Notes under the pieces: generated by a model
Told to the model about the DNA's origin: nothing
Database searches by the model: none
The model's input: only the letters and a program-made list of their open reading frames with translations
Origin: Mollicutes bacterium
GTDB taxonomy: Bacteria; Bacillota_I; Bacilli_A; RF39; UBA660
NCBI GenBank assembly: GCA_012837765.1
Contig: DUQO01000018.1
Coordinates: forward strand, 16,014 to 80,013
Direction: 5' to 3'
DNA: 64,000 bases
Made by a program: the position numbers and the translations under genes
Shown here: positions 34,896 through 54,114 of the stretch, piece after piece
Layout: every line of letters starts with the position of its first letter
Position numbering within the stretch: the stretch's first letter is position 1

Positions 34896-37436
34896 TTAAA
34901 GTCCTTCTCCAACAGATAAGACAGCACGAAAGCCATAACCACCACCAAACTCAGCACCCATAAAATATTCAAAATTGAAAGGACCCGCAGAGGCACCACT
35001 ACCATAATAACCACCGCGAATAAACCAAGGATTACTGTTATTTGCCATATAAGAATAGTCTCCATACCATGATGTTGAGCCTGTTCCCACATTACTTGTC
35101 TCATAAAGTGCATCGCCTTTAGACGATATAGTTAATTTATAATTTTCTGTTTGATTATCCGTTTCAGCTACTTCATATACATCTTTATATTTAGAGTGTG
35201 ATATGTAAGCACTTTCACCATATACTGTTAAATATACGTGTGAATTATCTACATAGGCGGATAAATATTCCCAGGCTCCTCCTGACATATCATATATACC
35301 TGTTATATTTCCTGTTGTACTTGCCTTTACTCCATCAGTTGTATGGTACTCATTACAGATACTTTCATTTGTTGCATTTACTCCACTACCTGCACATCCT
35401 GTTTTATTTGAAGTGTTTGAATTATTCCATATTTCATTTGGATTACCATACTGTGATTTAGATAGATATGCTACTGCGCCCCATTCGGTATTCTTCATCA
35501 TATGGGTATCTATTCCATTACCACTGGTTCCCCAGCCATAGATTGAATTAGTTTCCATACTCCTTACTTTGTTAAATATATTATTTACTGATATGTATCT
35601 CCATGAAATTACTCCTGGTACTATTTTAACATTGTTACTTCCGTCATTGCTTGACTCAAATTTTCCTACCCAAATTCCTGTAAGTTCAACACCACCAAAG
35701 GTGAAAGCTGGATGACTTGTCCATGTTCCATTAGAGTCTGTTGCACGCCCTGTATTTACTAATGTTACTGTGCCTCCTAATGTATCATCTATACCTTTAC
35801 TAAATTGAACCTCGATTGTTCCTGTACTAGATGAATGCCATCCTGATGTAATCCTATATATATATCTTGGGATCCAGACCCACATTGAACCATCAGCTGT
35901 TTTAGCATTAGCCCACATCATTTCATCATAATTATACCATTCAGAATCTGACAAACTTGTATTAACCCAGGTTGTTCCATTCCATTTAATTGGGATCATT
36001 CCTTCTGCTAAAATAGGAGCGTTTGCTATACTTTTTTCACGAACATCTATTATTCTTTTAATACTCGTCTTATTTCCACTAAAATCACTAACTACATATT
36101 CAATTTTGTATGTTCCAGGTTTATTTATATTTAAATTACTAATTTTAATTATTTTGTCTGTTATATCCCCATCTACATTATCAATTGCTGTAGCTCCTGC
36201 ATCTACATACTCTTCACCAACATATAGATTTATTAAATTATCACCTAACAATGTGATTACAGGTTTTTCTCTATCAACACTAACAATGTCTTTTATCACA
36301 TATGGATTATCAAATTCACCTGTTCCTCTATCAATATATATATTTCCTTTTAAATTAATAACAGGTCTTGTGTGAATTGTAGTGTTGGCATCAACAGGAG
36401 CACCTAATGAACCAACAGAATTAACAGTCCATACTTTGGTGGAATTATTATCAGGTGTAAGAGTCCAATAATTATAAAAGTTTTTATATAAATAATTATC
36501 ATTTTTACAACTGATTCCATTATCACCTGATGTTTTATATGCTGTCAAACAATTATTATCTAGACTAGCGTATAAATAATCACTTCCATTTAATAATCCT
36601 ATTGATAAATTTGTTGTTTGTGTTACACATTCATTATTTAAAAATGTTGATTTTGTAACTCCACTAGTGCTATAACCTATTTTTCCAACACACCATTTGT
36701 TCGTTTGTACTTTTGCTTTGTTATTTTCACTTATGTTTGAATTGTACCAATTTTGCAATCTTGTCGCTATAGAAACAGAACTTTTATATTCATTTGTGTT
36801 TGAATTATCAAATGTTCCATTTCCTATATTTCCATTTTGTTCTGTTCCTTCTCCTTTTCGTTTTCCTTCATATATTATTTTTATAGAATCATCATTATTT
36901 ATTTTGACAATGCGCCATAAAGAATCATTAAATTCAATCCAATTTTTAGGATTTAATCCTCTATAATAATAAGTATTATTTGAATAATTAAAATGCAAAC
37001 CTGGAGTAGTTCCTGAAACTACATTAGTTGATTCAGTTAATTTATCAACTAAGAAAATTGGTGCATAACAACCTCTATCTTCATAACAAATAGATAATGT
37101 TTTTTTTGTTTCACGAACAACAAAAATCTTTTTAGTTAAATCAATTTCTTCGTCACTTCTAGGATCTTTAACAGGCAATTTTAATAAATTATCTTCTTTT
37201 AAATCATTTAATGACAAACTATAATAATTATAAGTATCAAGATGTTTTTCTATTTCATCACGGTGTCTTGAAACATATAATCTAGCATTATTTTCAAAAC
37301 TATCTATTAAAATATTATATGAATTTTCCTTAGCATTTCTTATCATTTTAAAAACGCTAGGTATAACAAGAGATGATAATATTACAAGTATAACTATTAC
37401 TGCTAATAATTCAACTAATGTAAATCCCTTTTTCAT
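34896..37436 (-). CDS. Large prepilin-type N-terminal domain protein with DUF5011 Ig-like domain and FGE-sulfatase-like C-terminal domain
   Basis: Class III signal MKKGFTLVELLAVIVIL (G|FTLVE). DUF5011 block PVITLLGDN...GATAIDNVDGDIT...PGTY...VSDFSGN. C-terminal motifs NTEWGAVAY, GIYDMSGGAWEY, PWFIRGGYY and GGGYGFRAV parallel the FGE/SUMF1 blocks. Own promoter and RBS AGGTGA. The ORF-track start is a TTG; the ATG is at 37436. Confidence 0.6.
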   Translation of the reverse strand: MKKGFTLVELLAVIVILVILSSLVIPSVFKMIRNAKENSYNILIDSFENNARLYVSRHRDEIEKHLDTYNYYSLSLNDLKEDNLLKLPVKDPRSDEEIDLTKKIFVVRETKKTLSICYEDRGCYAPIFLVDKLTESTNVVSGTTPGLHFNYSNNTYYYRGLNPKNWIEFNDSLWRIVKINNDDSIKIIYEGKRKGEGTEQNGNIGNGTFDNSNTNEYKSSVSIATRLQNWYNSNISENNKAKVQTNKWCVGKIGYSTSGVTKSTFLNNECVTQTTNLSIGLLNGSDYLYASLDNNCLTAYKTSGDNGISCKNDNYLYKNFYNYWTLTPDNNSTKVWTVNSVGSLGAPVDANTTIHTRPVINLKGNIYIDRGTGEFDNPYVIKDIVSVDREKPVITLLGDNLINLYVGEEYVDAGATAIDNVDGDITDKIIKISNLNINKPGTYKIEYVVSDFSGNKTSIKRIIDVREKSIANAPILAEGMIPIKWNGTTWVNTSLSDSEWYNYDEMMWANAKTADGSMWVWIPRYIYRITSGWHSSSTGTIEVQFSKGIDDTLGGTVTLVNTGRATDSNGTWTSHPAFTFGGVELTGIWVGKFESSNDGSNNVKIVPGVISWRYISVNNIFNKVRSMETNSIYGWGTSGNGIDTHMMKNTEWGAVAYLSKSQYGNPNEIWNNSNTSNKTGCAGSGVNATNESICNEYHTTDGVKASTTGNITGIYDMSGGAWEYLSAYVDNSHVYLTVYGESAYISHSKYKDVYEVAETDNQTENYKLTISSKGDALYETSNVGTGSTSWYGDYSYMANNSNPWFIRGGYYGSGASAGPFNFEYFMGAEFGGGYGFRAVLSVGEGL

Positions 37437-37464
37437 CAATTAAATCACCTATTTTCCTGAATTA

Positions 37465-37493: not shown

Positions 37494-37518
37494 GAAAAAG
37501 AACTTATTAATAAGTTCT
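37490..37518 (-). terminator. Terminator overlapping the dnaN stop codon
   Basis: Perfect 20-bp palindrome AGAACTTATTAATAAGTTCT followed by a T5 run on the minus strand. Confidence 0.6.
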
Positions 37519-38631
37519 AACAGGTACTATTAATTGAATTAAACTTTCATCATTTAAAGCTTTAATTATAAATTGTTTAGTTTCATTTATTAATAACATT
37601 TTTATTTTTTCACTTTGGAAACTTTTTAAAGCTTCCATCATAAACCTTGCATTAAAAGAAATTTTTAAATTATTATTATTATTTTTTTCAACAATTATTC
37701 GTTCTTCTACTTTTCCAACTTGAAGTGTATCACATGAAGTAATCAATTCGTTGTTTGTAATTTTCATTTGAATTATATTTTTATCTGTATCACTTAATAA
37801 AGATGTTCTATCTATTATATTATATAACTCATCTAAATTAACTATTACTTCTATATTGTGTTCGGTTGGAATTAAAGTACTAATATTTGGAAAAGTACCA
37901 TTTAATAATCTAGATTGAAATAATAAATTATCAAATTTAAATATTATTTTATTATTAAAAATATGTAATTCAATCTTTTCATCTTCATTTAATAACTTAG
38001 ATAATTCAATTAAACTACTTTTTGGAATAACTATGTCTATATTATCATTAATGGAATTATCTAAGTTTATTTTTTTAACTGCTAATCTATAAGAATCAGT
38101 TGCTACAGCTTCTAAGATATCACCATCTATTTTTATATTTATACCAGTTAAAATTGGTCTGGATTCTTGCATTGAAGCTGCAAAAGATGTTTGATTAATA
38201 ATGTTAAGTAAATGTTTTTGCTCAAGAATAATTGGAGTTTTAATAAGATCAAGGTTATAATCTGGAAATTCAGTTGCATCTATTCCATTTAAGTTATATT
38301 CTGATGATGGAGTGGTAATTAAAATTTTTAAACCATCTGTTTCTAAATTAATTATTTCGTGAGGAATTTTTCTTGTTATATCAAGTATATATCTTCCTGG
38401 TATAACTATACTTCCAGTTTCATTTATCTCTTGGATATTACTTTTATCTATAAAAGTTTTAATAACAATACTTTCATCACTAGCTTCTAAATATAAACCA
38501 TTTTCATTTAGTGTAAATTTAATACCTGCTAAAACAGGAATAACATTTTTAGTTGATACAGCTCTTGCTACATAATTTAAATTACTTAACAAAATATCCT
38601 TTTTAATTTTTAATTTCATTTTTTCCTCCAT
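37507..38631 (-). CDS. dnaN: DNA polymerase III beta sliding clamp
   Basis: 374 aa immediately downstream of dnaA, beta-clamp three-domain length. Confidence 0.9.
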   Translation of the reverse strand: MEEKMKLKIKKDILLSNLNYVARAVSTKNVIPVLAGIKFTLNENGLYLEASDESIVIKTFIDKSNIQEINETGSIVIPGRYILDITRKIPHEIINLETDGLKILITTPSSEYNLNGIDATEFPDYNLDLIKTPIILEQKHLLNIINQTSFAASMQESRPILTGINIKIDGDILEAVATDSYRLAVKKINLDNSINDNIDIVIPKSSLIELSKLLNEDEKIELHIFNNKIIFKFDNLLFQSRLLNGTFPNISTLIPTEHNIEVIVNLDELYNIIDRTSLLSDTDKNIIQMKITNNELITSCDTLQVGKVEERIIVEKNNNNNLKISFNARFMMEALKSFQSEKIKMLLINETKQFIIKALNDESLIQLIVPVRTY

Positions 38632-38743
38632 TTTTATTATTATTTAAATAATATTATTATTATTATTGTTGTTGATAATGTTGATAAGATGTTTAAAGCT
38701 TTAAATTAAAGACTTTTAGAAATATAAAACTGTTTATAATTTG
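38632..38743. promoter_or_regulatory. oriC part between dnaA and dnaN: two abutting DnaA boxes plus an AT-rich unwinding region
   Basis: TGTTGATAA at 38670-38678 and again at 38679-38687 (TTATCAACA on the minus strand), flanked by (ATT)n runs. Confidence 0.7.
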
Positions 38744-40135
38744 TTATTTCAATTGTTGAATTAAATTGTCAATCATATTTTTTATTTCTTTATTACATTT
38801 TATATCACGTTCTATTTTATCGCAAGCATGAATTACAGTTGAATGATTTTTTCCACCAAACTCCATTCCTATTTTAATGAAAGATTCATCTGTTAATTTC
38901 CTTGATAAATACATAGCAACTTGTCTTGGATAAGAAATTTCATAAGTTCTTCGGTTTGATTTTAAATCATCAACCCTAACCTTATAAAATTCAGCTACGG
39001 TTTTTTGAATTCGATGAATATCATTTTTTAATGATAATGATTTGTTTAAATAATCTTTTAAAGCTTCAATTGCAACATCTAAATTGATTTTTGGAACATT
39101 AAACATAGTTGCATAAGCATATATTCTTGTTAAAGCTCCTTCTAATTGCCTAACATCAGCTTGAAAGTTATTAGCTACATATTCTAAAACGTCGTTTGTA
39201 ATTGTTTTACTTAAATCCCTGTTGATCATTTTCTTTTTCAAAATATTAATTCTAAGTTCATAATCAGGAGGGTAAATATTAACTTTAAGCCCCCAATTAA
39301 ATCTCGTTACAAGTCTTTCTTCCAATAGTTTTAAATCATCTGGTGAACGATCTGATGAAATAATAATTTGTTTATTATCATCATATAAATCATTAAATGT
39401 ATGGAAAAATTCTTGTTGTGATGCAGGAGCACCACTAAGCATTTGAATATCATCAATAATAAGAACATCAATATTTCTATATTTATCTTTAAAATACTCT
39501 ATATAATCATAATTAGTACCATTACTATCTCTTTTTGTTAAGTTAAGAAAATCAGATACAAATTTTTCGCTTGTTACATATAAAACCTTTTTATTTGTAT
39601 TTTTTACTATATAATTTCCAATAGCATGCATTAGATGTGTTTTACCAAGTCCACTATTTCCATATATAAATAAAGGATTATATGCTTTACCAGGGTTTTC
39701 TGCAACAGAAACCGCAGCAGCATGTGCAAAAAAGTTGCTTTCTCCTACAATAAAATTATCAAATATATATTTTGTATTTAAATTAGCTTGAATAGGATCA
39801 TTATATGGAACACCAATATTATCATTATTTGAAATTTGTTTCTTTTTAACATTTATTTCTTCTTCTAAAATAAATTGAAATTCAAAATTAGTTCCTGTTA
39901 CTTCATTAAATGTTTCGACTATTAAATCAATATAATTGTCATTCAAGTGTTTTTTATGAACATGCATAGGAACAATAACTTTTGCAATTCCATTATCCAA
40001 TTCATATAATTTAGTACCTTTAAACCAAGTATCAAAAGGAAGGGAAGTAAGCTTAGAACGAATAATGTTTAAAAAGTTTTGCCATATAGTATCTTTATCC
40101 ATTTTTATCACATCCTTGTTTACATCTAATATCAT
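38744..40135 (-). CDS. dnaA: Chromosomal replication initiator DnaA
   Basis: AAA+ motifs GNSGLGKTHL and box VII, C-terminal DNA-binding domain, 463 aa. Confidence 0.95.
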   Translation of the reverse strand: MILDVNKDVIKMDKDTIWQNFLNIIRSKLTSLPFDTWFKGTKLYELDNGIAKVIVPMHVHKKHLNDNYIDLIVETFNEVTGTNFEFQFILEEEINVKKKQISNNDNIGVPYNDPIQANLNTKYIFDNFIVGESNFFAHAAAVSVAENPGKAYNPLFIYGNSGLGKTHLMHAIGNYIVKNTNKKVLYVTSEKFVSDFLNLTKRDSNGTNYDYIEYFKDKYRNIDVLIIDDIQMLSGAPASQQEFFHTFNDLYDDNKQIIISSDRSPDDLKLLEERLVTRFNWGLKVNIYPPDYELRINILKKKMINRDLSKTITNDVLEYVANNFQADVRQLEGALTRIYAYATMFNVPKINLDVAIEALKDYLNKSLSLKNDIHRIQKTVAEFYKVRVDDLKSNRRTYEISYPRQVAMYLSRKLTDESFIKIGMEFGGKNHSTVIHACDKIERDIKCNKEIKNMIDNLIQQLK

Positions 40136-40507
40136 TTTACCTTATTTTATAACGTTTTGAACAAAAAAAGTGAAAAAACCTACAAAAAAAGAGTTGTTAA
40201 CATACTTATCAACACCAAAAACCTTATATTTGTAATAAAAAGAAGAGTTATCAACAAAATGTTGTTGATAATAACTTTTTTTATAATAAATTTGATTGTT
40301 GATATTGTTAATAACTCATCAAAACTTATAATAAAAGAAAAAAATTAAAAAAATATCAACAAAAAACCTAATTTATTTTGTCAATAATAAATATTTATCA
40401 ACAAGGAAAATTTTTTTTTAAAAAGAAATAATAAAATAAACCAATATCTTTTATTGACAATGAAGATGTGTTTAATTATAATGTTAATGAATGTGGAGGT
40501 GTATTAA
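40136..40507. promoter_or_regulatory. oriC part upstream of dnaA: cluster of DnaA boxes, plus the divergent dnaA and rpmH promoters
   Basis: TTATCAACA at 40206, 40248 and 40395. TGTTGATAA at 40263. One-mismatch boxes at 40297 and 40353. rpmH promoter TTGACA-17-TATAAT at 40455-40483. Confidence 0.8.
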
Positions 40508-40636
40508 ATGAAAAGACCTTTTCAACCAAATAAAAGAAAAGCTAAAAAGAAACATGGTTTTTTTGCTAGAAAAGAAGGAAAAGGAAAAATTCTAAAAAGA
40601 AGAAGAGTAAAAGGACGTAAAAGACTTTCTAAATAA
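40508..40636 (+). CDS. rpmH: 50S ribosomal protein L34
   Basis: My translation MKRPFQPNKRKAKKKHGFFARKEGKGKILKRRRVKGRKRLSK; RBS GGAGGTG. Below the ORF-track size cutoff. Confidence 0.85.
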   Translation: MKRPFQPNKRKAKKKHGFFARKEGKGKILKRRRVKGRKRLSK

Positions 40637-40674
40637 ATCCACAAGATGTGGCTTTTTTAGTATGAGGTGATGAA

Positions 40675-41013
40675 ATGAAAAAAATAAATATCATCCGCAA
40701 ATCAAAAGAGTTTGCAAAAATGATTAAAAATCGTCATTATTATAGTAATCGTTTTTTTATTATATATATAATGAAAAAGAGTGAAAAATATTTTCGTTTC
40801 GGCATCTCTATACCAAAAAAAGTAGGAAAAAGTGTAATTCGAAACAAAATTAAAAGACAAATAAAAAGCATTATCGATAATAATAAAAAATTTAATAGGG
40901 ATTTAGACTATGTTATAATAGTAAGGAAAGAAATATTAAATTTAAAATACAAGGAAATGGCTGAAAGTCTTAATTTGTTATTATCAAAAATTGATGGAGA
41001 GTGTAAAAAATGA
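40675..41013 (+). CDS. rnpA: RNase P protein component
   Basis: 112 aa basic protein after rpmH; pattern ...IRKSKEF... Confidence 0.85.
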   Translation: MKKINIIRKSKEFAKMIKNRHYYSNRFFIIYIMKKSEKYFRFGISIPKKVGKSVIRNKIKRQIKSIIDNNKKFNRDLDYVIIVRKEILNLKYKEMAESLNLLLSKIDGECKK

Positions 41014-41930
41014 GAAGAAACAAAATAATATTATTGATTTTAGTTTTATTTACTATAACAGGATGTACAACATATATAAAAGATGAAAACAACAAAGGAG
41101 TAAAATATGAATTAACAGGACAAAACTTACCATCAAATATTTTATGTAAACCAACTGATAAAGATGTAATTGAAATATATGAAAAGTATGAAATCGATAT
41201 TAAATCTCTACCAGAATGTAATGAATTTAAAATAAGTGATGGTGGATATGAAGGTTTATGGAATAGTGTTTTTGTAAAACCATTAGCTTGGTCAATATTA
41301 AAACTTGGATCTTTAATTAAAAATTATGGTTTATCTTTAATGATTATAGGATTTTTAATAAGATTAGCAATGTATCCTGTAACAAAAGGAACAGCTATGC
41401 AATCAGAAAAATTAGCGAAAGCTAAACCAGAGATGGAACAAATTGAAAAAAAATATAAAGATAAAACAAGTCAAGAAGATATGATGAAAAAAAGTCAAGA
41501 AATGATGGTTGTTTATCAAAAATATAAGATTAATCCATTATCAAGTTGTTTATTTGCTCTTCTACAATTACCATTATTCTTTGCTTTTTTAGAAGCTGTA
41601 AATAGAGTTCCAGCTATATTTGAAGGTAACCTTTTATTCTTTCAACTAGGAACAACTCCTTTAACTGCAATAATAAACAAAGGACAATTTCAATATTTAA
41701 TAATTGTTGCTTTACTTGCAATCGTAACAAAATATTCATTTAAATTAAATAAAACAGCAACAATTGATGCTGAAGCCAATAGACAAATGGATTTTATGAA
41801 CAAATTTTTAATGTTCTTTATTCCATCAGCATCGATGACTATGTCGACAGCTATTTCATTATATTGGATTACATCAAGTACTTTCACGATATTGCAAAAC
41901 ATTATTGTTAAAAGGAGAGAAGTAAAATGA
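41010..41930 (+). CDS. yidC: Membrane protein insertase YidC/SpoIIIJ (lipoprotein)
   Basis: Lipobox FTITGC, 5 TM core, rpmH-rnpA-yidC-jag synteny. Confidence 0.85.
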   Translation: MRRNKIILLILVLFTITGCTTYIKDENNKGVKYELTGQNLPSNILCKPTDKDVIEIYEKYEIDIKSLPECNEFKISDGGYEGLWNSVFVKPLAWSILKLGSLIKNYGLSLMIIGFLIRLAMYPVTKGTAMQSEKLAKAKPEMEQIEKKYKDKTSQEDMMKKSQEMMVVYQKYKINPLSSCLFALLQLPLFFAFLEAVNRVPAIFEGNLLFFQLGTTPLTAIINKGQFQYLIIVALLAIVTKYSFKLNKTATIDAEANRQMDFMNKFLMFFIPSASMTMSTAISLYWITSSTFTILQNIIVKRREVK

Positions 41931-46374: not shown

Positions 46375-47427
46375 ATGAAGTATGATTTAAAACAGGTTTT
46401 AATTATTTTGACCGTAACTTTTACTTTTACTATGTTAATAGTACCAATAATTAAAAAAATCTCATTACATATTGGTGCAGTAGATAGGCCTAATGAAAGA
46501 AGAATAAATAAAAAAGATATGCCAAATCTTGGAGGATTAGCCATTTTTGCTGGTTTTTTACTAGGTTATATTTTATTTTGTGAACAAACAGTTATTATGA
46601 ATTCTGTTTTAGTTGGAGGTTTTATTCTAATTATTACAGGAATGATTGATAGTATTAATTCTCTTAAAGCAAGATATCAATTTTTTGCTCATTTACTATC
46701 GGCTTTCATTGTTGTTTTTTATGGGGGATTGTCACTTAATGTAATAGATGCCTTTGGATATACTATTAATTTTGGGATTTTTTCATATCCAATAACTATA
46801 TTTTTTATAGTAGGTATGATAAATGTCATCAATCTTATAGATGGGCTTGATGGCTTAGCTTCAGGTATATCTTCCATTTTCTTTTTAACGATTGGAATCA
46901 TAGCATTTATTATGAATAAAATAGGAGGCCTTGATATAGCTCTTTCATTTGTTATGTTAGGTTCAACACTAGGTTTTCTAGTTCATAATTTTTATCCTGC
47001 TAAAATATATATGGGTCAATCAGGATCTATGTTTTTAGGATATATTATAGCAGTAATAGCTTTATTAGGTTTTAAAAATGTTACATTAACTTCTTTTCTT
47101 GTTCCTATATTAATAATGGCAATACCAATAATAGACACTTTTTTTGCTATTTTAAGAAGAATAATAAATAAGCAGTCTATAGCTTCTGCTGACAAACAAC
47201 ATTTACATCATCAATTGTTAAAAATGAACTTTTCTCATAGAACAACAGTACTTATAATCTATTATATAGATGCCTTATTTGCTTTTGCATCTATTGTATA
47301 TGTTTTAAAAGATGCAAAATTAGGAATCTTTCTTTATGTAATACTTCTCATAATAGTAATATGGTTTGTTGTAACAACTAACATCATTATAAATAGGGAA
47401 AAACCTAAAAAAAATGCGCGTAAGTAA
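46375..47427 (+). CDS. tagO: UDP-GlcNAc:undecaprenyl-phosphate GlcNAc-1-phosphate transferase (WecA/TagO, GT4 MraY-like)
   Basis: NVINLIDGLDGLASG motif, about 10 TM. Confidence 0.8.
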   Translation: MKYDLKQVLIILTVTFTFTMLIVPIIKKISLHIGAVDRPNERRINKKDMPNLGGLAIFAGFLLGYILFCEQTVIMNSVLVGGFILIITGMIDSINSLKARYQFFAHLLSAFIVVFYGGLSLNVIDAFGYTINFGIFSYPITIFFIVGMINVINLIDGLDGLASGISSIFFLTIGIIAFIMNKIGGLDIALSFVMLGSTLGFLVHNFYPAKIYMGQSGSMFLGYIIAVIALLGFKNVTLTSFLVPILIMAIPIIDTFFAILRRIINKQSIASADKQHLHHQLLKMNFSHRTTVLIIYYIDALFAFASIVYVLKDAKLGIFLYVILLIIVIWFVVTTNIIINREKPKKNARK

Positions 47428-47578: not shown

Positions 47579-48295
47579 ATGCTTCATTTTGTAATCTTTG
47601 ATGACAATGAGTTGATAAGAGAAAAAGTAAACAAAGTAATAACTAAATTAATGTTACCGACGGATATAGAATATAAAACGTTGGAATTTTCCAAATACAA
47701 TAAAAGTTTTGCTCAATTGATAGAAAGAAGAGGAGAAAAGAAAATATATATATTAGATATAGAAGTAGATTCTTACTCTGGTTTGGATGTTGCAAGAAAA
47801 ATAAGAGAGAGAGATTGGGAAAGCATTATAATAGTTTTAACAGCACATTATGAACTTGCATATGATGCCTTTAAAAATAGACTAATGTTGTTAGATTTTA
47901 TTTCAAAATTTGATAATTATGAACAAAATTTATATGATGTTTTAAAATTAGCATTAAAAGCATCACATGTTAAAAAACAATTTTCTTTTACTTCCAATAG
48001 AATGGCATATAGGGTTGATTACGATGATATTTTATATATTATCAAGGATACAGCAAAAAGAAATACAATTGTTAAAACTTTTTCTAAAGAATACCCTGTA
48101 TCACTTAACTTAAATGAAATAATGGCAATGTTGCCAGATAATTTTATTCAAACACATAGAGCATGTACAATTAATAGGGATAATGTAAAAACAATTGATT
48201 TTAAAGAAAACATTATAACATTTATTAATAATGAAAAAATATCAATGTTATCAAAAACATATAAGAAAGAAGTGAAAGAACATGTCTTTAGTTGA
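47579..48295 (+). CDS. LytTR-family response regulator (AgrA-like)
   Basis: Receiver with phospho-acceptor Asp in YILDIEVDS. C-terminal LytTR module ...ILYIIKDTAKRNTIV...QTHRACTIN. Confidence 0.8.
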   Translation: MLHFVIFDDNELIREKVNKVITKLMLPTDIEYKTLEFSKYNKSFAQLIERRGEKKIYILDIEVDSYSGLDVARKIRERDWESIIIVLTAHYELAYDAFKNRLMLLDFISKFDNYEQNLYDVLKLALKASHVKKQFSFTSNRMAYRVDYDDILYIIKDTAKRNTIVKTFSKEYPVSLNLNEIMAMLPDNFIQTHRACTINRDNVKTIDFKENIITFINNEKISMLSKTYKKEVKEHVFS

Positions 48296-49595
48296 TTTGA
48301 TTGGCCCCTCTTTTATCTTCAACATATTTCAACTAAAACTATCATCTGTAATAATAAAAGAAAAAATAGACTTTAAAAACGGAAAAAACATATTTTTATT
48401 TATACTTTTAATAGTAATGCTTTCCTTTTCAACTTTAGTTTTTAATAATTTTTTACGAGTGGTATTCAATTTCTTATGTTTGCTCTTTTTCTATTATTTT
48501 ATTCATAACAAAGGAATAAATGTAGCATTTATCGTTTCGTTTATTGCCTTCTTTTTATTTTTTATGTCAGAAATAATATTTTCTTCAATGTTATACTTTG
48601 TTAGTCAAATATGGGATATATCTATTGATATTGAAAAAAATACATTGCTATATTTAATATCAAATATATCAATTGGTTTTATGGCTATTATAATATATCG
48701 AATAAAAAAAATAAAACAAATTATTTTTACTTTGATTAAAAATTATGAAAAAACCAAATTTACTAAAACCATGTTGATAATACTAATGTTAATTTTTGTA
48801 TTAGTAAATAAAAATTTTTTATTGTTTGATTTTTATTTTGATTATCTTTTGAATCTATTTATTGTAGCGTTATTTTGCTTAATAGCTTATTTATTATTAA
48901 AGGAAAAAAATGCAAATGTGTCATTATCTAAAAAATATGATCAACTGTTTAGTTATTTAGAAAATTATGAAAAAGAACTTAATAAAAAAAGTATAATAAT
49001 TCATGAATTTAATAATCAACTAATTGCTATAAAAGGATTCAATGATAAGAAAAATAAGCATTTAGAACAATACCTAAATTCTATAATTAAAGATAATCAA
49101 AAGGGTGGAGAAAAGTTTCTTGATGATATGGAAAACCTTCCAAAGGGAGGATTAAAAGGATTAATTTATTATAAATTAGGATATCTGAAAGATGAAGGAA
49201 TTAATGTTGTAACTGATATTAGTTCAACTGTTAGAAAAAATGCCTTCGCTAAATTTGATCCTTCTTTATATAGAGATATTTTAAAAATAGTAGGTGTGTT
49301 GTTAGATAATGCTGTAGAGGCTGCAAAAGAATCAAAAGAAAAGCAAATATCATTAGAAATCTTTTGTACTAAAAATGATTTTAATATTGTATTATCTAAT
49401 ACCTTTTGTAATAATATTGATCTTGAAAAAATAGATGAATCAAAATATTCGACAAAAGGTAAGGATAGGGGATATGGACTTGCATTAGTAAAGCAAATAG
49501 TTAAAGATAATCCTAAATTGCAAGTTAAAAAAGAAATAATTAATAATTTCTTTGTTTCGACATTAACAATTGAACTAAAAAACACTTCTAATTAG
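48282..49595 (+). CDS. AgrC-like (HPK10) membrane sensor histidine kinase
   Basis: Six N-terminal TM helices, H-box IIIHEFNNQLIAIKG, GHKL motifs LLDNAVEA and GYGLALV. Confidence 0.7.
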   Translation: MSLVDLIGPSFIFNIFQLKLSSVIIKEKIDFKNGKNIFLFILLIVMLSFSTLVFNNFLRVVFNFLCLLFFYYFIHNKGINVAFIVSFIAFFLFFMSEIIFSSMLYFVSQIWDISIDIEKNTLLYLISNISIGFMAIIIYRIKKIKQIIFTLIKNYEKTKFTKTMLIILMLIFVLVNKNFLLFDFYFDYLLNLFIVALFCLIAYLLLKEKNANVSLSKKYDQLFSYLENYEKELNKKSIIIHEFNNQLIAIKGFNDKKNKHLEQYLNSIIKDNQKGGEKFLDDMENLPKGGLKGLIYYKLGYLKDEGINVVTDISSTVRKNAFAKFDPSLYRDILKIVGVLLDNAVEAAKESKEKQISLEIFCTKNDFNIVLSNTFCNNIDLEKIDESKYSTKGKDRGYGLALVKQIVKDNPKLQVKKEIINNFFVSTLTIELKNTSN

Positions 49596-49611
49596 ATAGA
49601 AGTGTTTTTTA
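49578..49611. terminator. Bidirectional terminator between the convergent kinase and agrD
   Basis: Perfect 13-bp inverted repeat AAAAACACTTCTA / TAGAAGTGTTTTT. Confidence 0.65.
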
Positions 49612-49616
49612 GATTA

Positions 49617-49751
49617 TTATTCTATTATTGATTTTGGTGCTTCTGGTTCATCAAACCAAAAAAGAATGCATCCAACATGAGCAGCATTAGAAGCAAGTAA
49701 GCCAACTACTGCTGCAAAGCGTCCTATAATCTTTAGTGTCCTCTTTTTCAT
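49617..49751 (-). CDS. agrD: AgrD-like autoinducing peptide precursor (44 aa)
   Basis: My translation MKKRTLKIIGRFAAVVGLLASNAAHVGCILFWFDEPEAPKSIIE: amphipathic leader, conserved Cys, C-terminal DEPEAPK tail (compare S. aureus ...CDFIMDEVEVPKEL). RBS GGGAGGAATATT. Below the ORF-track cutoff. Confidence 0.7.
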   Translation of the reverse strand: MKKRTLKIIGRFAAVVGLLASNAAHVGCILFWFDEPEAPKSIIE

Positions 49752-49784
49752 AATATTCCTCCCTTCTCATTCTTTATCAAATCA

Positions 49785-50390
49785 TCATTTTTTTTGATGA
49801 TATGATTTGTAGTTGTTATATGGTAAATTTAGTAATCTATATGAAATGGGTATTATTAGTAAAGATTCAATTACTAATGAAAATATAAGGCAATTTGATA
49901 CTAAGTTATTGCTTATAAAAAATGACAACAAACCATAAAAAATAGCTGTCAAAGAAGAAAGTAATTTATATTTTTTTCTTCTTTTTTTATTTATTAGTGG
50001 TCGTTTATGAGTGTCTGCAGGAGCATATAAAATAATAATAATAAAGCAAATAATAAAAATTAATATTTTTATAAATAAATTTATTACTAATACTGAGGCT
50101 AAATAAGATGTAAAAATAAAAACACTACCAGATAAAAACAAACAAATTCTGCTATTAGGAGCATGCAATCCAAAAGCATATAATCTAATACCACTAAATA
50201 TAATTGTTAATAACAAAAATTCTTTTAAAAGATTTAGAAAAAAACTGACTGTAACAAAAAGTATTGTTTTTCCAAGTAACAAGTATATTGCTTCTAAACC
50301 ATAACTAATTTTTTCGATATGTATATTGTTGTATGAGTTGTCATTTTTTTCTATCACCATAAGTAACTTATTTATAACTGCATTTTTCAT
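49785..50390 (-). CDS. agrB: AgrB-like membrane peptidase/cyclase
   Basis: Catalytic region FGLHAPNSRICLF (His/Cys) and YAPADTHKRP, 201 aa polytopic membrane protein. Confidence 0.8.
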   Translation of the reverse strand: MKNAVINKLLMVIEKNDNSYNNIHIEKISYGLEAIYLLLGKTILFVTVSFFLNLLKEFLLLTIIFSGIRLYAFGLHAPNSRICLFLSGSVFIFTSYLASVLVINLFIKILIFIICFIIIILYAPADTHKRPLINKKRRKKYKLLSSLTAIFYGLLSFFISNNLVSNCLIFSLVIESLLIIPISYRLLNLPYNNYKSYHQKK

Positions 50391-50404
50391 TAACTTCGCT
50401 CCCT

Positions 50405-50481
50405 ATTATAATAATTTTATCTTTTTTTCAAACATAATTTTTTTCAAGCGCTTGAAAAGTGTTAGTAAATGTTTGAAATGA
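50405..50481 (-). promoter_or_regulatory. agrB promoter with LytTR-type direct repeats
   Basis: 9-bp repeats TTGAAAAGT (50452-60) and TTGAAATGA (50473-81) separated by exactly 12 bp, upstream of a TTGAAA..TATAAT promoter with 15-16 bp spacing. Confidence 0.55.
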
Positions 50482-50695
50482 AGAAAAAGGGCCAATCAAA
50501 TATGTCGAAAGTCATTTTATGTCAAAAAAAAGGCGTTTTGTGTTTTGTTTAGTTTTTAAAAGTCTTAATTTATTAGAATATAATAGTAAATTAGTTATTA
50601 TGCGCAATAAATGTCACAATTTGTATTACTGCTTTTGTTGAAAAGCATAATTGTGTGAGTTATAGTGGTATTGTAAGGTTTTACTAGAAGGTGAG

Positions 50696-50920
50696 GTGCA
50701 AGAGGTGGTCGGAAAAGTAAAATGGTTTAATAATGAAAAGGGATATGGATTTATTGACTACTTAGAAGGTGAAGATATCTTTGTTCATTACAGCAACATT
50801 AAGCAAGAAGGCTTTAAAACTCTTTGTGAAGGACAAATGGTTAAATTTGATTTAATTCACACGGAAAAAGGACTACAAGCGATAAATGTTGAAAACGTTA
50901 ATGTAGCTACCGTTGTATAG
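50696..50920 (+). CDS. Cold-shock protein (CspA family)
   Basis: [18 protein letters not shown] motifs. GTG start after AGGTGAGGTG. Confidence 0.85.
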
Positions 50921-50997
50921 GTAGTTTTTTTTTAGATTTAATATTTGTAATTAATGTATTAAATGTTATAATTAATTTATAGAATGGAGGTATATAT

Positions 50998-51528
50998 ATG
51001 AAAATAGAAATTCGTGGCGACAAACTTTTAATCACAAAAGCAATTAAAAATTACATTGAAGAAAAGTTGAGTAAGCTAGACAAATATTTTAAAAAACCGG
51101 AAAATATTACCGCTAAAATAACACTTAAAGTAAGAGGGAGAAGCAAAATTATAGAGGTAACTATACCACTAAATTCTTTTATATTACGTAATGAAGAAGA
51201 ACATGGCGATTTATATGCCGCTATTGATCTTGTAGTTGATAAATTAGAAAGGCAAGTTGTAAAAAATAAAACTAAAATTAAAAGTAAACCATTAAAGTCA
51301 AAGAACATTGAAATCATCTTTGAGGATGAAGAAGAGGTTTTAGAAAAACCAGAAGTAATAGTAAAAAGGAAAAAATTAGAAATGAAACCAATGAGTGAAG
51401 AAGAAGCAATTTTGCAAATGAATTTATTGAATCATGATTTCTTTATTTTCAAAGATGCTGAAACAAATCACATTCATGTTTTGTATAAAAGAAAAGATGG
51501 AAATTATGGAATAATAGAAACAAAATAG
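50998..51528 (+). CDS. hpf: Ribosome hibernation promoting factor, long form
   Basis: MKIEIRGDKLLITKAIKNYIEEKL... with C-terminal dimerisation domain. hpf-secA-prfB synteny as B. subtilis yvyD-secA-prfB. Confidence 0.85.
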   Translation: MKIEIRGDKLLITKAIKNYIEEKLSKLDKYFKKPENITAKITLKVRGRSKIIEVTIPLNSFILRNEEEHGDLYAAIDLVVDKLERQVVKNKTKIKSKPLKSKNIEIIFEDEEEVLEKPEVIVKRKKLEMKPMSEEEAILQMNLLNHDFFIFKDAETNHIHVLYKRKDGNYGIIETK

Positions 51529-51609: not shown

Positions 51610-54114
51610 ATGATGAAAATGGGTTTTCTTAAAAGTGTTTTTAATCATGAATACAGGGAACTAAAAAAATTTAATGCTATTGCTACTAAAGTAGATGAGT
51701 TAGATAGTGTTATGCAGAAACTATCTGATTATGAATTAAAGGCTAAAACAAATGAATTTAAAGAGAGATTGGCAAATGGTGAAACACTAGATGATTTATT
51801 AGTTGAAGCTTTTGCGGTAGTAAGAGAAGCGGCGTTTCGTACTATAAAAGAAAAACCATATTTTGTACAAATTTTAGGTGGTATTACAATTCACTATGGT
51901 AATATTGCTGAAATGAAAACAGGTGAAGGAAAAACCTTATCTTTAACAATGCCTGCTTATTTAAATGCATTAACAGGTGAGGGTGTACATGTTATTACAG
52001 TAAACGAATATCTAGCTAGTTTTCATGCTGGATGGATGGGACAAATATTTGAATTTCTTGGTTTAACTGTAGGTGTTAATTTACGAGAATTAGACTTTGA
52101 AGAAAAGAAAAATGTATACAATTGCGATATCATGTATACAACAAATAGTGAGTTAGGTTTTGACTATTTAAGAGATAACATGGTAGTAAATAAAGAAAGA
52201 AGAGTTCAAAGAGGACTCAATTTTGCAATCGTTGACGAGGTTGACTCAATTTTAATAGATGAAGCACGTACTCCACTAATAATTTCTGGTGGCTACATGA
52301 AATCTTTAAATTTATACAAAGATGCTGATATGTTTGCAAAAACATTGCGTGAAAATGAAGGTTATATAAAAGATGAAAAAACCAATGCTATTAGTTTAAC
52401 AGAAGAAGGTTCAATCAAAGCTGAAAATTATTTTAAAATTGAAAACTTATATGATATTAAACATTCAGCTCTAGTTCATCATATAAACCAAGCTATTAAA
52501 GCTAATTTTGGTATGAAAAAAGATGTGGATTATGTTGTACAAGATGACGAAGTGGTAATAGTAGATCAATTTACCGGACGTCTAATGAAAGGACGAGCTT
52601 TTAGTGAGGGATTACATCAAGCTATAGAAGCAAAAGAAGGAGTAACAATAAAAGAAGAAACTCGTACTTTAGCAACAATTACTTTTCAGAATTTATTTAG
52701 AATGTATAAAAAGTTATCAGGTATGACTGGTACTGCAAAAACAGAAGAAGAGGAATTTAGAAACATATATAACATGTATGTTATTCAAATACCTACAAAT
52801 AGACCAGTTATAAGAAAAGACTTGCCAGATTTAATATATACAAACAAAGAAGGAAAATACAATGCAATTATTCGTGTTATACAAGAATGTTATAAAAATG
52901 GTCAACCAGTTTTAGTAGGAACTATTGCTATTGAAACAAGTGAACTTATTAGCAATACGTTACGAAAAAAGAAAATACCACATGAAGTATTAAATGCTAA
53001 AAACCACGCGAGAGAAGCTGAAATTATAGCTAAAGCAGGAGAAAAAGGTGCAGTTACTATTGCAACTAACATGGCTGGTCGTGGAACGGATATCAAATTA
53101 GGAGAAGGAGTTAAGGAACTAGGTGGTTTATTTGTTATAGGTACTGAACGTCATGAATCAAGACGTATTGATAACCAATTAAGAGGTCGTGCAGGACGTC
53201 AAGGAGACCCTGGCGTTTCCCAATTCTTTGTCTCGTTAGAAGATGATATCATGGTTCGTTTTGGTTCTGATAGAATTAAAGGAATGATGCAGTCTTTAGG
53301 TTTTGGTGGGGATCAAGCAATTCGTAGTAAGATGTTTACAAATGCTATGGAAACAGCCCAAAAGAGAGTAGAAGGATATAACTTTGATATTAGAAAACAA
53401 TTACTTCAATATGATGATGTCATGAACAGACAAAGAGAAATAATATATGAAAAAAGAAATAGTATTTTAGATGAAGATTCAATTCATGACTATATATTGA
53501 AAAGTATAATGGATTATATAGAAAGATTAGTATTTAGTCATTTAATAGAAGAAAAAGTATTAACATTAAACGATAAATCAGAGATTATTGAAGCTGTAAA
53601 TGAAAATTTATTAAAGAACGACAGAATGTCAGTTGATGATATAAAAGAAGATGATGAAAATACAATAGTAAGAAAAATATATGAAAAAGTAATACATGAT
53701 TATGAGCAAAAAATAAAAGATCTGCCAAATGATATAATCAACGATTTTGAAAAAGCAATTCATTTAAATGTTATCGATAGACATTGGATGGAACATATTA
53801 ATACAATGGAACATTTAAGAGAAGGAATAGGTTTAAGGGGTTACGCTCAAGAAAACCCTCTTCAAGCTTATGTTTCAGAAGGATTTGCTCTATTTGAAGA
53901 AATGTTAGCTAGAATTGATGAACAAACAACAATATATATATTGAAGGCAGAAATAAAACAAAATTTAGAGACTAAAGAAGTTGCAAATATAGCTACTAAT
54001 GAAGATAAGAGTAAAACAATAAAGAGACAACCAAAAAAAGTAAATAAGATAGGAAGAAATGAGCCTTGCCCATGTGGCAGTGGCAAGAAGTATAAACAAT
54101 GTTGTGGTAAATAA
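51610..54114 (+). CDS. secA: Preprotein translocase ATPase SecA
   Basis: 834 aa with DEAD-motor motifs and the C-terminal zinc motif CPCGSGKKYKQCCGK. Confidence 0.95.
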   Translation: MMKMGFLKSVFNHEYRELKKFNAIATKVDELDSVMQKLSDYELKAKTNEFKERLANGETLDDLLVEAFAVVREAAFRTIKEKPYFVQILGGITIHYGNIAEMKTGEGKTLSLTMPAYLNALTGEGVHVITVNEYLASFHAGWMGQIFEFLGLTVGVNLRELDFEEKKNVYNCDIMYTTNSELGFDYLRDNMVVNKERRVQRGLNFAIVDEVDSILIDEARTPLIISGGYMKSLNLYKDADMFAKTLRENEGYIKDEKTNAISLTEEGSIKAENYFKIENLYDIKHSALVHHINQAIKANFGMKKDVDYVVQDDEVVIVDQFTGRLMKGRAFSEGLHQAIEAKEGVTIKEETRTLATITFQNLFRMYKKLSGMTGTAKTEEEEFRNIYNMYVIQIPTNRPVIRKDLPDLIYTNKEGKYNAIIRVIQECYKNGQPVLVGTIAIETSELISNTLRKKKIPHEVLNAKNHAREAEIIAKAGEKGAVTIATNMAGRGTDIKLGEGVKELGGLFVIGTERHESRRIDNQLRGRAGRQGDPGVSQFFVSLEDDIMVRFGSDRIKGMMQSLGFGGDQAIRSKMFTNAMETAQKRVEGYNFDIRKQLLQYDDVMNRQREIIYEKRNSILDEDSIHDYILKSIMDYIERLVFSHLIEEKVLTLNDKSEIIEAVNENLLKNDRMSVDDIKEDDENTIVRKIYEKVIHDYEQKIKDLPNDIINDFEKAIHLNVIDRHWMEHINTMEHLREGIGLRGYAQENPLQAYVSEGFALFEEMLARIDEQTTIYILKAEIKQNLETKEVANIATNEDKSKTIKRQPKKVNKIGRNEPCPCGSGKKYKQCCGK

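Follow-up and report, generated by a model that had tools for sequence, protein, structure and literature searches.

The 305-bp gap between the divergent genes agrB and csp in the DNA analysed here is very probably a bidirectional, regulator-dependent control region: read from its sequence, it would place agrBD under positive feedback and provide csp as an output, with the regulator-kinase operon outside the loop. The gap lies in a 64-kb window (the whole stretch of DNA that was analysed) from an uncultured 'Mollicutes bacterium' MAG. A preliminary description had proposed autoinduction from a repeat upstream of agrB, and positive feedback on agrBD is still the best reading of that repeat, as many related agr loci share the site with its sequence, spacing, strand and position, and a LytTR regulator and a GHKL kinase are encoded next to it.

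Profile matches give a complete agr module in the window, comprising AgrB, AgrD, a GHKL kinase and a LytTR regulator (Table 1). The agrBD genes on the minus strand and the regulator-kinase genes on the plus strand form convergent units separated by a bidirectional terminator at 49575-49612, a hairpin with a 16-bp stem and A-/T-run flanks that separates the stop codons of the kinase gene and agrD and looks like a single terminator for both operons. Because the two units converge on this terminator, the agrB promoter has to lie on the minus strand at coordinates above 50390, within the gap to csp. Among solved structures, those closest to the window regulator are ComE (4cbv, 1.5e-9) and the LytTR domain of AgrA (3e-8). 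The AgrB of the window is 100% identical to the AgrB of an NCBI 'Mollicutes bacterium' MAG, and homologues with 50-62% AgrB identity share the gene order csp, agrB, agrD, kinase, regulator, glycosyltransferase, mreB. The C-terminus of AgrD, ...AAHVGCILFWFDEPEAPKSIIE, holds C-I-L-F-W followed by the usual acidic/proline processing motif, which suggests that the mature peptide may carry a thiolactone ring formed from these five residues; AgrD is highly variable in sequence, with relatives 26-72% identical to the AgrD of the window.

Table 1. Genes and predicted regulatory elements at the csp-agrB region of the uncultured 'Mollicutes bacterium' MAG (positions in the 64-kb window)
Feature	Position	Strand	Basis or remark
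Family-4 glycosyltransferase	46375-47427	+	
LytTR response regulator (presumed binder)	47579-48295	+	PF04397 E=5.7e-17, PF00072 receiver domain
AgrC-like GHKL histidine kinase	48282-49595	+	PF14501 E=1.5e-12; AgrC model weak match E=3.9e-15
agrD, 44 aa, ...HVGCILFWFDEPEAPKSIIE	49617-49751	-	TIGR04223 25.6 bits, cut-off 19
agrB, 201 aa, ATG at 50390	49785-50390	-	PF04647 E=3.1e-32
agrB Shine-Dalgarno GGGAG	50399-50403	-	read from sequence; AGGG/GGAG block kept in relatives
Predicted -10 of agrBD promoter, TAAAAT	50414-50419	-	29 nt past proximal half-site; conserved in spacer alignment
agrB operator, promoter-proximal half-site CTTTTCAAGCG (includes TTGAAAAGT)	50449-50459	-	10.8 bits; 21 bp from distal half-site
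agrB operator, promoter-distal half-site CATTTCAAACA (includes TTGAAATGA)	50470-50480	-	12.8 bits alone; kept in L001, L003, L004, L005
csp-directed promoter-distal half-site CATTTTATGTC	50513-50523	+	6.6 bits; clade-wide conserved position
csp-directed promoter-proximal half-site CGTTTTGTGTT	50534-50544	+	5.3 bits; pair 12.8 bits
Predicted -10 TAGAAT, regulator-dependent csp promoter	50574-50579	+	29 nt past half-site; inside conserved TTATTAGAATA block
Second csp promoter, sigma-A-type TTGAAA-17-TATAGT	50638-50666	+	promoter scan; position conserved in relatives
csp, cold-shock domain protein	50696-50920	+	PF00313 E=1.5e-25
csp terminator	50905-50926	+	
hpf	50998-51528	+	
secA	51610-54114	+	

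The 9-bp direct repeats with a 12-bp spacer that had been described at agrB are there exactly as claimed: on the plus strand, TTGAAAAGT at 50452-50460 and TTGAAATGA at 50473-50481 flank the 12-nt spacer GTTAGTAAATGT (50461-72, +), and the pair lies 62-91 nt upstream of the agrB ATG. In agrB sense, on the minus strand, the 9-mers read TCATTTCAA-N12-ACTTTTCAA. Comparison with relatives places the conservation on 11-mers, offset by 1-3 nt from the 9-mers and still with a period of 21 bp; in agrB sense they are CATTTCAAACA-N10-CTTTTCAAGCG (50480-50449, -). The likeness in geometry to the operators of AgrA, ComE and PlnC was borne out as well, with two imperfect direct repeats of 21-bp period just 5' of the agrB promoter. 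Other hallmarks of a LytTR operator occur alongside: the imperfect repeats of ~9 bp are spaced within 11-13 bp, the gene for a LytTR response regulator (PF04397 plus a receiver domain) belongs to the same locus, and the repeats stand in a fixed orientation directly 5' of the -35 position, counted from the predicted starts.

In DNA of 25% GC, two TTGAAA-containing 9-mers could come to lie 21 bp apart by accident and be functionless. Exact TTGAAA-N15-TTGAAA occurs twice in the window where 0.26 are expected, which is weak for a post-hoc pattern, and with 2 mismatches allowed the count is 2 against 1.7 expected, no rarer than chance; the simple pattern is surprising only weakly, and the question is therefore settled by comparison with other genomes. 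A/T-tract phasing also yields self-similarity, at offset 10, and a naive best-9-mer scan of the proximal regions (offsets 10-40, -140..-30 of 76 promoters) gave no clear peak but a marginal one at 21, and was discarded as too noisy in AT-rich DNA. We trained a weight matrix for pairs on csp-directed pairs from other genomes, not on agrB pairs (44 training sites, the window's own csp-directed pair among them). On this scale the agrB pair scores 23.8 bits, the best of ~128,000 window positions (the next has 14.0) and the top agrB-proximal pair among all loci, and exceeds the maximum of 20.5 bits over 100 Markov-simulated windows, of which 0/100 reach it. With a matrix retrained after the window and the relatives nearest to it had been removed, the pair scores 24.2 bits, a value that 0/5000 simulated intergenic regions reach. 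Equal frequency at random, the outcome by which the preliminary description would have been refuted, is not what the matrix score, above all simulations, indicates. The most informative matrix positions are rare C residues rather than A/T tracts, and dozens of other species have kept the spacing, the strand, the position and the distance to the -10; a chance origin, to which we give next to no credence, is effectively already refuted by the simulations and by this conservation.

The comparison drew on 160 further agrB loci from genome and metagenome collections; upstream regions could be used for 153 loci, and 76 remained once redundancy was removed. The relatives are uncultured 'Mollicutes/Bacilli' MAGs. 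The sequence elements, their significance and the conservation of their spacing, strand and position across relatives are direct observations. When 73 other non-redundant loci were searched in agrB sense, pairs of at least 10 bits were found in 19 at a spacing of 21 and in 0-6 at any other spacing from 14 to 29, while the opposite strand at agrB gave such a pair in 1/73 loci only. Pairs of at least 7 bits begin -82 to -97 from the agrB ATG in 22/28 loci (binomial P=1.6e-12). A self-similarity scan (11-mer windows, 300 nt) found at least 9/11 matches at offset 21 in 30/76 loci vs ~12 elsewhere, and these self-similar pairs cluster -142 to -163 from the agrB ATG. In the aligned csp-agrB spacers, the conserved islands are the two half-sites, the TAAAAT 29 nt on, the RBS region, an upstream pair of 21-bp period and the TTATTAGAATA block; there are no gaps between islands in 4/5 aligned sequences, and the sequence between them has diverged. 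In syntenic relatives (50-62% AgrB identity) both pairs and both -10s are retained, and their spacing shows no gaps. With the csp-trained matrix, the agrB-directed pair is above threshold in just ~1/4 to 1/3 of relatives. In one food-metagenome contig (L004, 853-891), the AgrB homologue aligns from residue 1 without an ATG, GTG or TTG start (the codon is ATC or ATA) and the database gene call begins 13 codons later, so that the gene has a non-canonical start or the contig contains a sequencing error.

As for the agrB promoter itself, the earlier claim of a promoter with sub-optimal -35/-10 spacing stands in part: a predicted promoter lies 3' of the repeats, but the spacing is not supported as described, given that no -35 is conserved and that the clade-wide -10 is TAAAAT at 50419-14. 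The phrase 'sub-optimal spacing as at P2/P3' would at best be replaced by 'no usable -35'. In relatives, a TAnnnT hexamer stands 29-30 nt past the second half-site in 18/23 agrB-directed and 29/36 csp-directed promoters, and hardly any occur at neighbouring gaps; TGnTAAAAT is present in many relatives. The distance from operator to -10 is 29 nt for the 11-mer and 32 nt for the 9-mer, whose register ends 9 nt before a virtual -35, and with the -10 at -12..-7 the half-sites fall at ~-73..-63 and ~-52..-42. The agrBD transcript is predicted to start near 50407, which would give a 17-nt leader with GGGAG. TTGAAA hexamers resembling a -35 are not conserved in relatives; the one nearer to the repeats, at 50447-42, is not supported as a functional -35, being 22 nt from the -10 and missing in relatives. 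As to an over-long -35/-10 spacer, this TTGAAA at 22 nt and an AAAAAT at 17 nt from TAAAAT are what the window holds. The hexamer TATAAT at 50410-05 (15 nt from TTGAAA 50431-26), which the span of 50405-50481 in the preliminary description implies, was rejected as the -10; it abuts the RBS, and the clade-conserved -10 lies 29-30 nt from the operator instead.

A second pair, absent from the preliminary description, forms a mirror image of the first: it lies at 50513-50544 (+), 32 nt further upstream of the agrB pair, and is oriented at csp. In the window this pair is weak, with 12.8 bits and 4.8 such matches expected per simulated window, and it was part of the training set; the case for it rests mainly on position and conservation. 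Six window positions reach 12.8 bits, and only the agrB and csp pairs have a -10 at 29-30 nt. The half-site consensus of the csp-directed pairs is ~C-A/C-T-T-T-C/T-A-G/A-A/G-C-A (for example CATTTCAGACA-N10-TATTTCAGACA in L098 and CATTTCAGACA-N10-CCTTTCACACG in L151), and its C residues and T-T-T core are the most informative, so that A/T-tract phasing does not account for it. The csp gene is the divergent neighbour of agrB in 53/75 non-redundant loci, and a csp-directed pair of at least 10 bits is found in 34 of these 53. In the loci without csp, which probably represent a different specificity group, neither pair is seen (csp-directed pair of at least 10 bits in 1/18). Across the clade, the csp-side pair is better conserved than the agrB pair.

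From the csp-directed pair, a transcript is predicted to start near 50586 with a leader of ~110 nt, and hpf probably lies outside it. The sigma-A-type promoter closer to csp is presumably independent of the regulator; since csp has this conserved promoter and a terminator of its own, the regulator-dependent promoter would add to a basal one. When 49400-51100 was compared with Rfam in search of a small RNA encoded between the promoters, only sub-threshold noise came back, and a 40-aa ORF at 50519-50641 was dismissed as an hld-like peptide because it begins upstream of the predicted transcript start. The predicted long leader also contains TGTC(A/G)(C/A)AATTTG at 50607-50620, just 5' of the csp sigma-A promoter; the motif recurs in the csp leaders of L020, L074 and L075, is doubled at an 11-12-nt period in some relatives, does not have LytTR geometry, and may be bound by another factor or act as an RNA element within the csp leader. 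A small hairpin, GCTTTTGTTGAAAAGC (50623-50641), overlaps the -35 of the sigma-A promoter, with the surrounding sequence kept in relatives; in a csp transcript from the upstream promoter it would be part of the long leader.

Between the agrB operator and its -10, the window holds two extra inverted half-site-like 11-mers, TTTTTCAAACA at 50424-34 and TTTTTCAAGCG at 50440-50 (+), with a 16-bp period and scores of 9.5 and 8.6 bits. Together with the proximal half-site they make up a perfect 18-bp palindrome, TTTTCAAGCGCTTGAAAA (50443-50460). Half-sites of at least 8 bits number 4 in the whole 305-bp gap vs 0.42 expected. The extra 11-mers and the palindrome are not conserved in relatives and occur only in this genome.

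The perfect palindrome and the inverted arrangement among the four half-site-like 11-mers would suit the operator of a different protein, either a dimeric helix-turn-helix repressor on TTTTCAAGCGCTTGAAAA or a LytTR regulator encoded elsewhere, and the binder is one that we infer, from a genome inspected over 64 kb. We nevertheless consider a different protein unlikely: the closest relatives lack the palindrome and the inverted half-sites and keep the direct repeats, a direct-repeat geometry of 21 bp belongs to LytTR proteins and not to palindrome binders (PMC4005675, PMC6193735), and synteny of agrBD with the genes for the LytTR regulator and the kinase holds in 49-60 of 75 loci (the LytTR regulator in 49/75). 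The same inverted half-sites overlap the spacer of TTGAAA(50431-26)-15-TATAAT(50410-05), which might be the main, constitutive promoter of agrBD, with the regulator repressing or modulating at the agrB pair and the csp-side pair acting as a bidirectional autoinduction input. This arrangement would sit well with the better conservation of the csp-side pair across the clade and with a TATAAT that is also kept in the five closest loci, but it is quite improbable in our view, as transcripts initiated from TATAAT would begin at the Shine-Dalgarno or beyond it and the sole fixed-distance -10 in distant relatives lies 29-30 nt from the agrB-sense pair. The two pairs, moreover, agree in orientation and in distance to their respective -10s, as would be expected of two equivalent promoters that both depend on an activator.

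Activation of agrBD and csp by the window regulator can be laid out as a sequence of steps, in which the binding protein, the direction of its effect and the transcript starts are all presumed. AgrB would process AgrD into an autoinducing peptide, which the kinase would sense, and the kinase would phosphorylate the LytTR regulator (47579-48295), whose predicted acceptor is Asp60. Two molecules of the phosphorylated regulator would then occupy the imperfect direct repeats as a tandem dimer, on an operator with a half-site of ~C-A/C-T-T-T-C/T-A-A/G-A/G-C-A, a 21-bp period and a pair centre ~58 nt before the transcript start. Once bound, the dimer may recruit RNA polymerase, or re-align it, where the promoter offers a -10 and no usable -35. 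At the agrB pair (50480-50449, -), this would drive agrBD from TAAAAT 50419-14 and feed back positively on peptide production; at the weaker mirror pair (50513-50544, +), it would drive a long-leader csp transcript from TAGAAT 50574-79, on top of the csp sigma-A promoter. The regulator-kinase operon would stay outside the loop.

The repeat was also to be sought at other promoters, and at that of the regulator-kinase operon it is missing: the best match there has 1.1 bits in the window, and none of the 49 regulator upstream regions scanned (the window and 48 relatives) has a pair of at least 10 bits at spacing 21. That promoter has an extended -10, TGTTATAAT, at 47536-44. Elsewhere in the 64-kb window, apart from agrB and csp, no pair exceeds 14 bits and none has a -10 at the right distance. 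The locus is not a single autoinduced agrBDCA operon but consists of agrBD and regulator-kinase as separate units, and since the regulator-kinase promoter carries no operator pair, autoinduction as read from the sequence would cover the signal-production half of the circuit only.

Comparison with known LytTR systems brings out what the locus shares with each of them and where it departs from them:

(i) In S. aureus, the AgrA sites at P2/P3 are direct repeats of the same geometry at promoters without an optimally placed -35, and AgrA-activated promoters have a -35 and a -10 with an over-long 18-20-nt spacer (PMC4227749). The locus here is likewise a LytTR agr module with two repeat pairs in one intergenic region, each just 5' of a predicted divergent promoter, one for agrB-agrD (positive feedback) and the other for an output transcript; the predicted starts here are ~180 bp apart. 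The divergent output, however, would be csp with its own promoter rather than RNAIII, the regulator and kinase genes (in this order) form a separate convergent operon without an operator rather than part of agrBDCA, and the -35-like hexamer, at 22 nt from the -10, lacks conservation. The half-site, C(A/C)TTT(C/T)A(A/G)(A/G)CA, also departs from the AgrA box, whose consensus is (T/A)(A/C)(C/A)GTTN(A/G)(T/G) with a GTT core; TCATTTCAA and ACTTTTCAA have TTT in place of GTT. The residues of the window regulator aligned with H169 and N201, the base-contact positions of AgrA, are both Arg. With a half-site off the AgrA box and Arg at both aligned positions, the specificity of AgrA is not transferable to this regulator.

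(ii) The ComE operator of S. pneumoniae consists of 9-bp repeats, DR1 and DR2, with a 12-mer linker, bound by a tandem LytTR dimer (PMC4005675). The ComE boxes (comCDE/comAB/comX) are two imperfect 9-bp direct repeats 12 bp apart, as in the window, and ComE is the closest solved homologue of the window regulator. The ComE-box consensus is aCAnTTcaG, and the window half-site, CA-TT-CA(G), resembles this pattern more nearly than it does the AgrA consensus. In contrast to ComC and ComAB, the signal here would be an AgrD thiolactone-type peptide made with AgrB; in S. pneumoniae the regulator and kinase genes belong to the autoinduced operon, whereas here they lie outside it.

(iii) LytTR regulatory systems (HdrRM/BrsRM) and class II bacteriocin regulators (PlnC/PlnD) use repeats 12 bp apart, 4-11 bp (typically 10) 5' of the -35, with an extended -10 and autoactivation (PMC6193735). 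The 9 nt between the 9-mer register and the virtual -35 agree with this placement, and the TGnTAAAAT of many relatives is the counterpart of the extended -10. These systems rely on a membrane inhibitor or a bacteriocin-type pheromone where the present locus has AgrBD, and their targets are bacteriocin and competence genes, unlike here.

Positive feedback by a LytTR dimer that occupies direct repeats is textbook knowledge; the lineage is uncultured and unstudied. A literature search for agr in RF39/Tenericutes, or for a link between agr and a csp promoter, found nothing relevant. We lean slightly towards the view that agr in this clade, made up of uncultured 'Mollicutes/Bacilli' with small genomes from gut and digester, has a hard-wired, direct csp output at the position held by RNAIII, with a long-leader promoter that carries the best-conserved LytTR operator of the locus. 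If this holds, cell-density signalling would directly tune an RNA chaperone, with the receptor genes outside the feedback loop, and the csp promoter under the regulator, whose association with agrBD is conserved, would be an unexpected direct output of peptide signalling; this wiring might be part of what interests specialists. The analysis also offers a concrete operator and promoter architecture (half-site consensus, 21-bp period and 29-30 nt to the -10) for agr-type quorum sensing in a lineage without a cultured model, and a weight matrix that can be used for regulon prediction in complete genomes of the clade.

Further features of the window include the oriC region at 37507-41930, with oriC ~10 kb from the agr locus; the region comprises dnaN and dnaA (-) followed by rpmH, rnpA and yidC (+). 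The dnaA-rpmH gap (40136-40508) is AT-rich and holds several DnaA boxes of the TTATCAACA type, and the GC skew switches sign at ~38-40 kb. Beside dnaN, at 34896-37439, an 847-aa protein combines an N-terminal prepilin-type methylation motif with DUF6273 and a bacterial surface Ig-like domain; such a pseudopilin-like surface protein is unusual for a 'Mollicutes' MAG.
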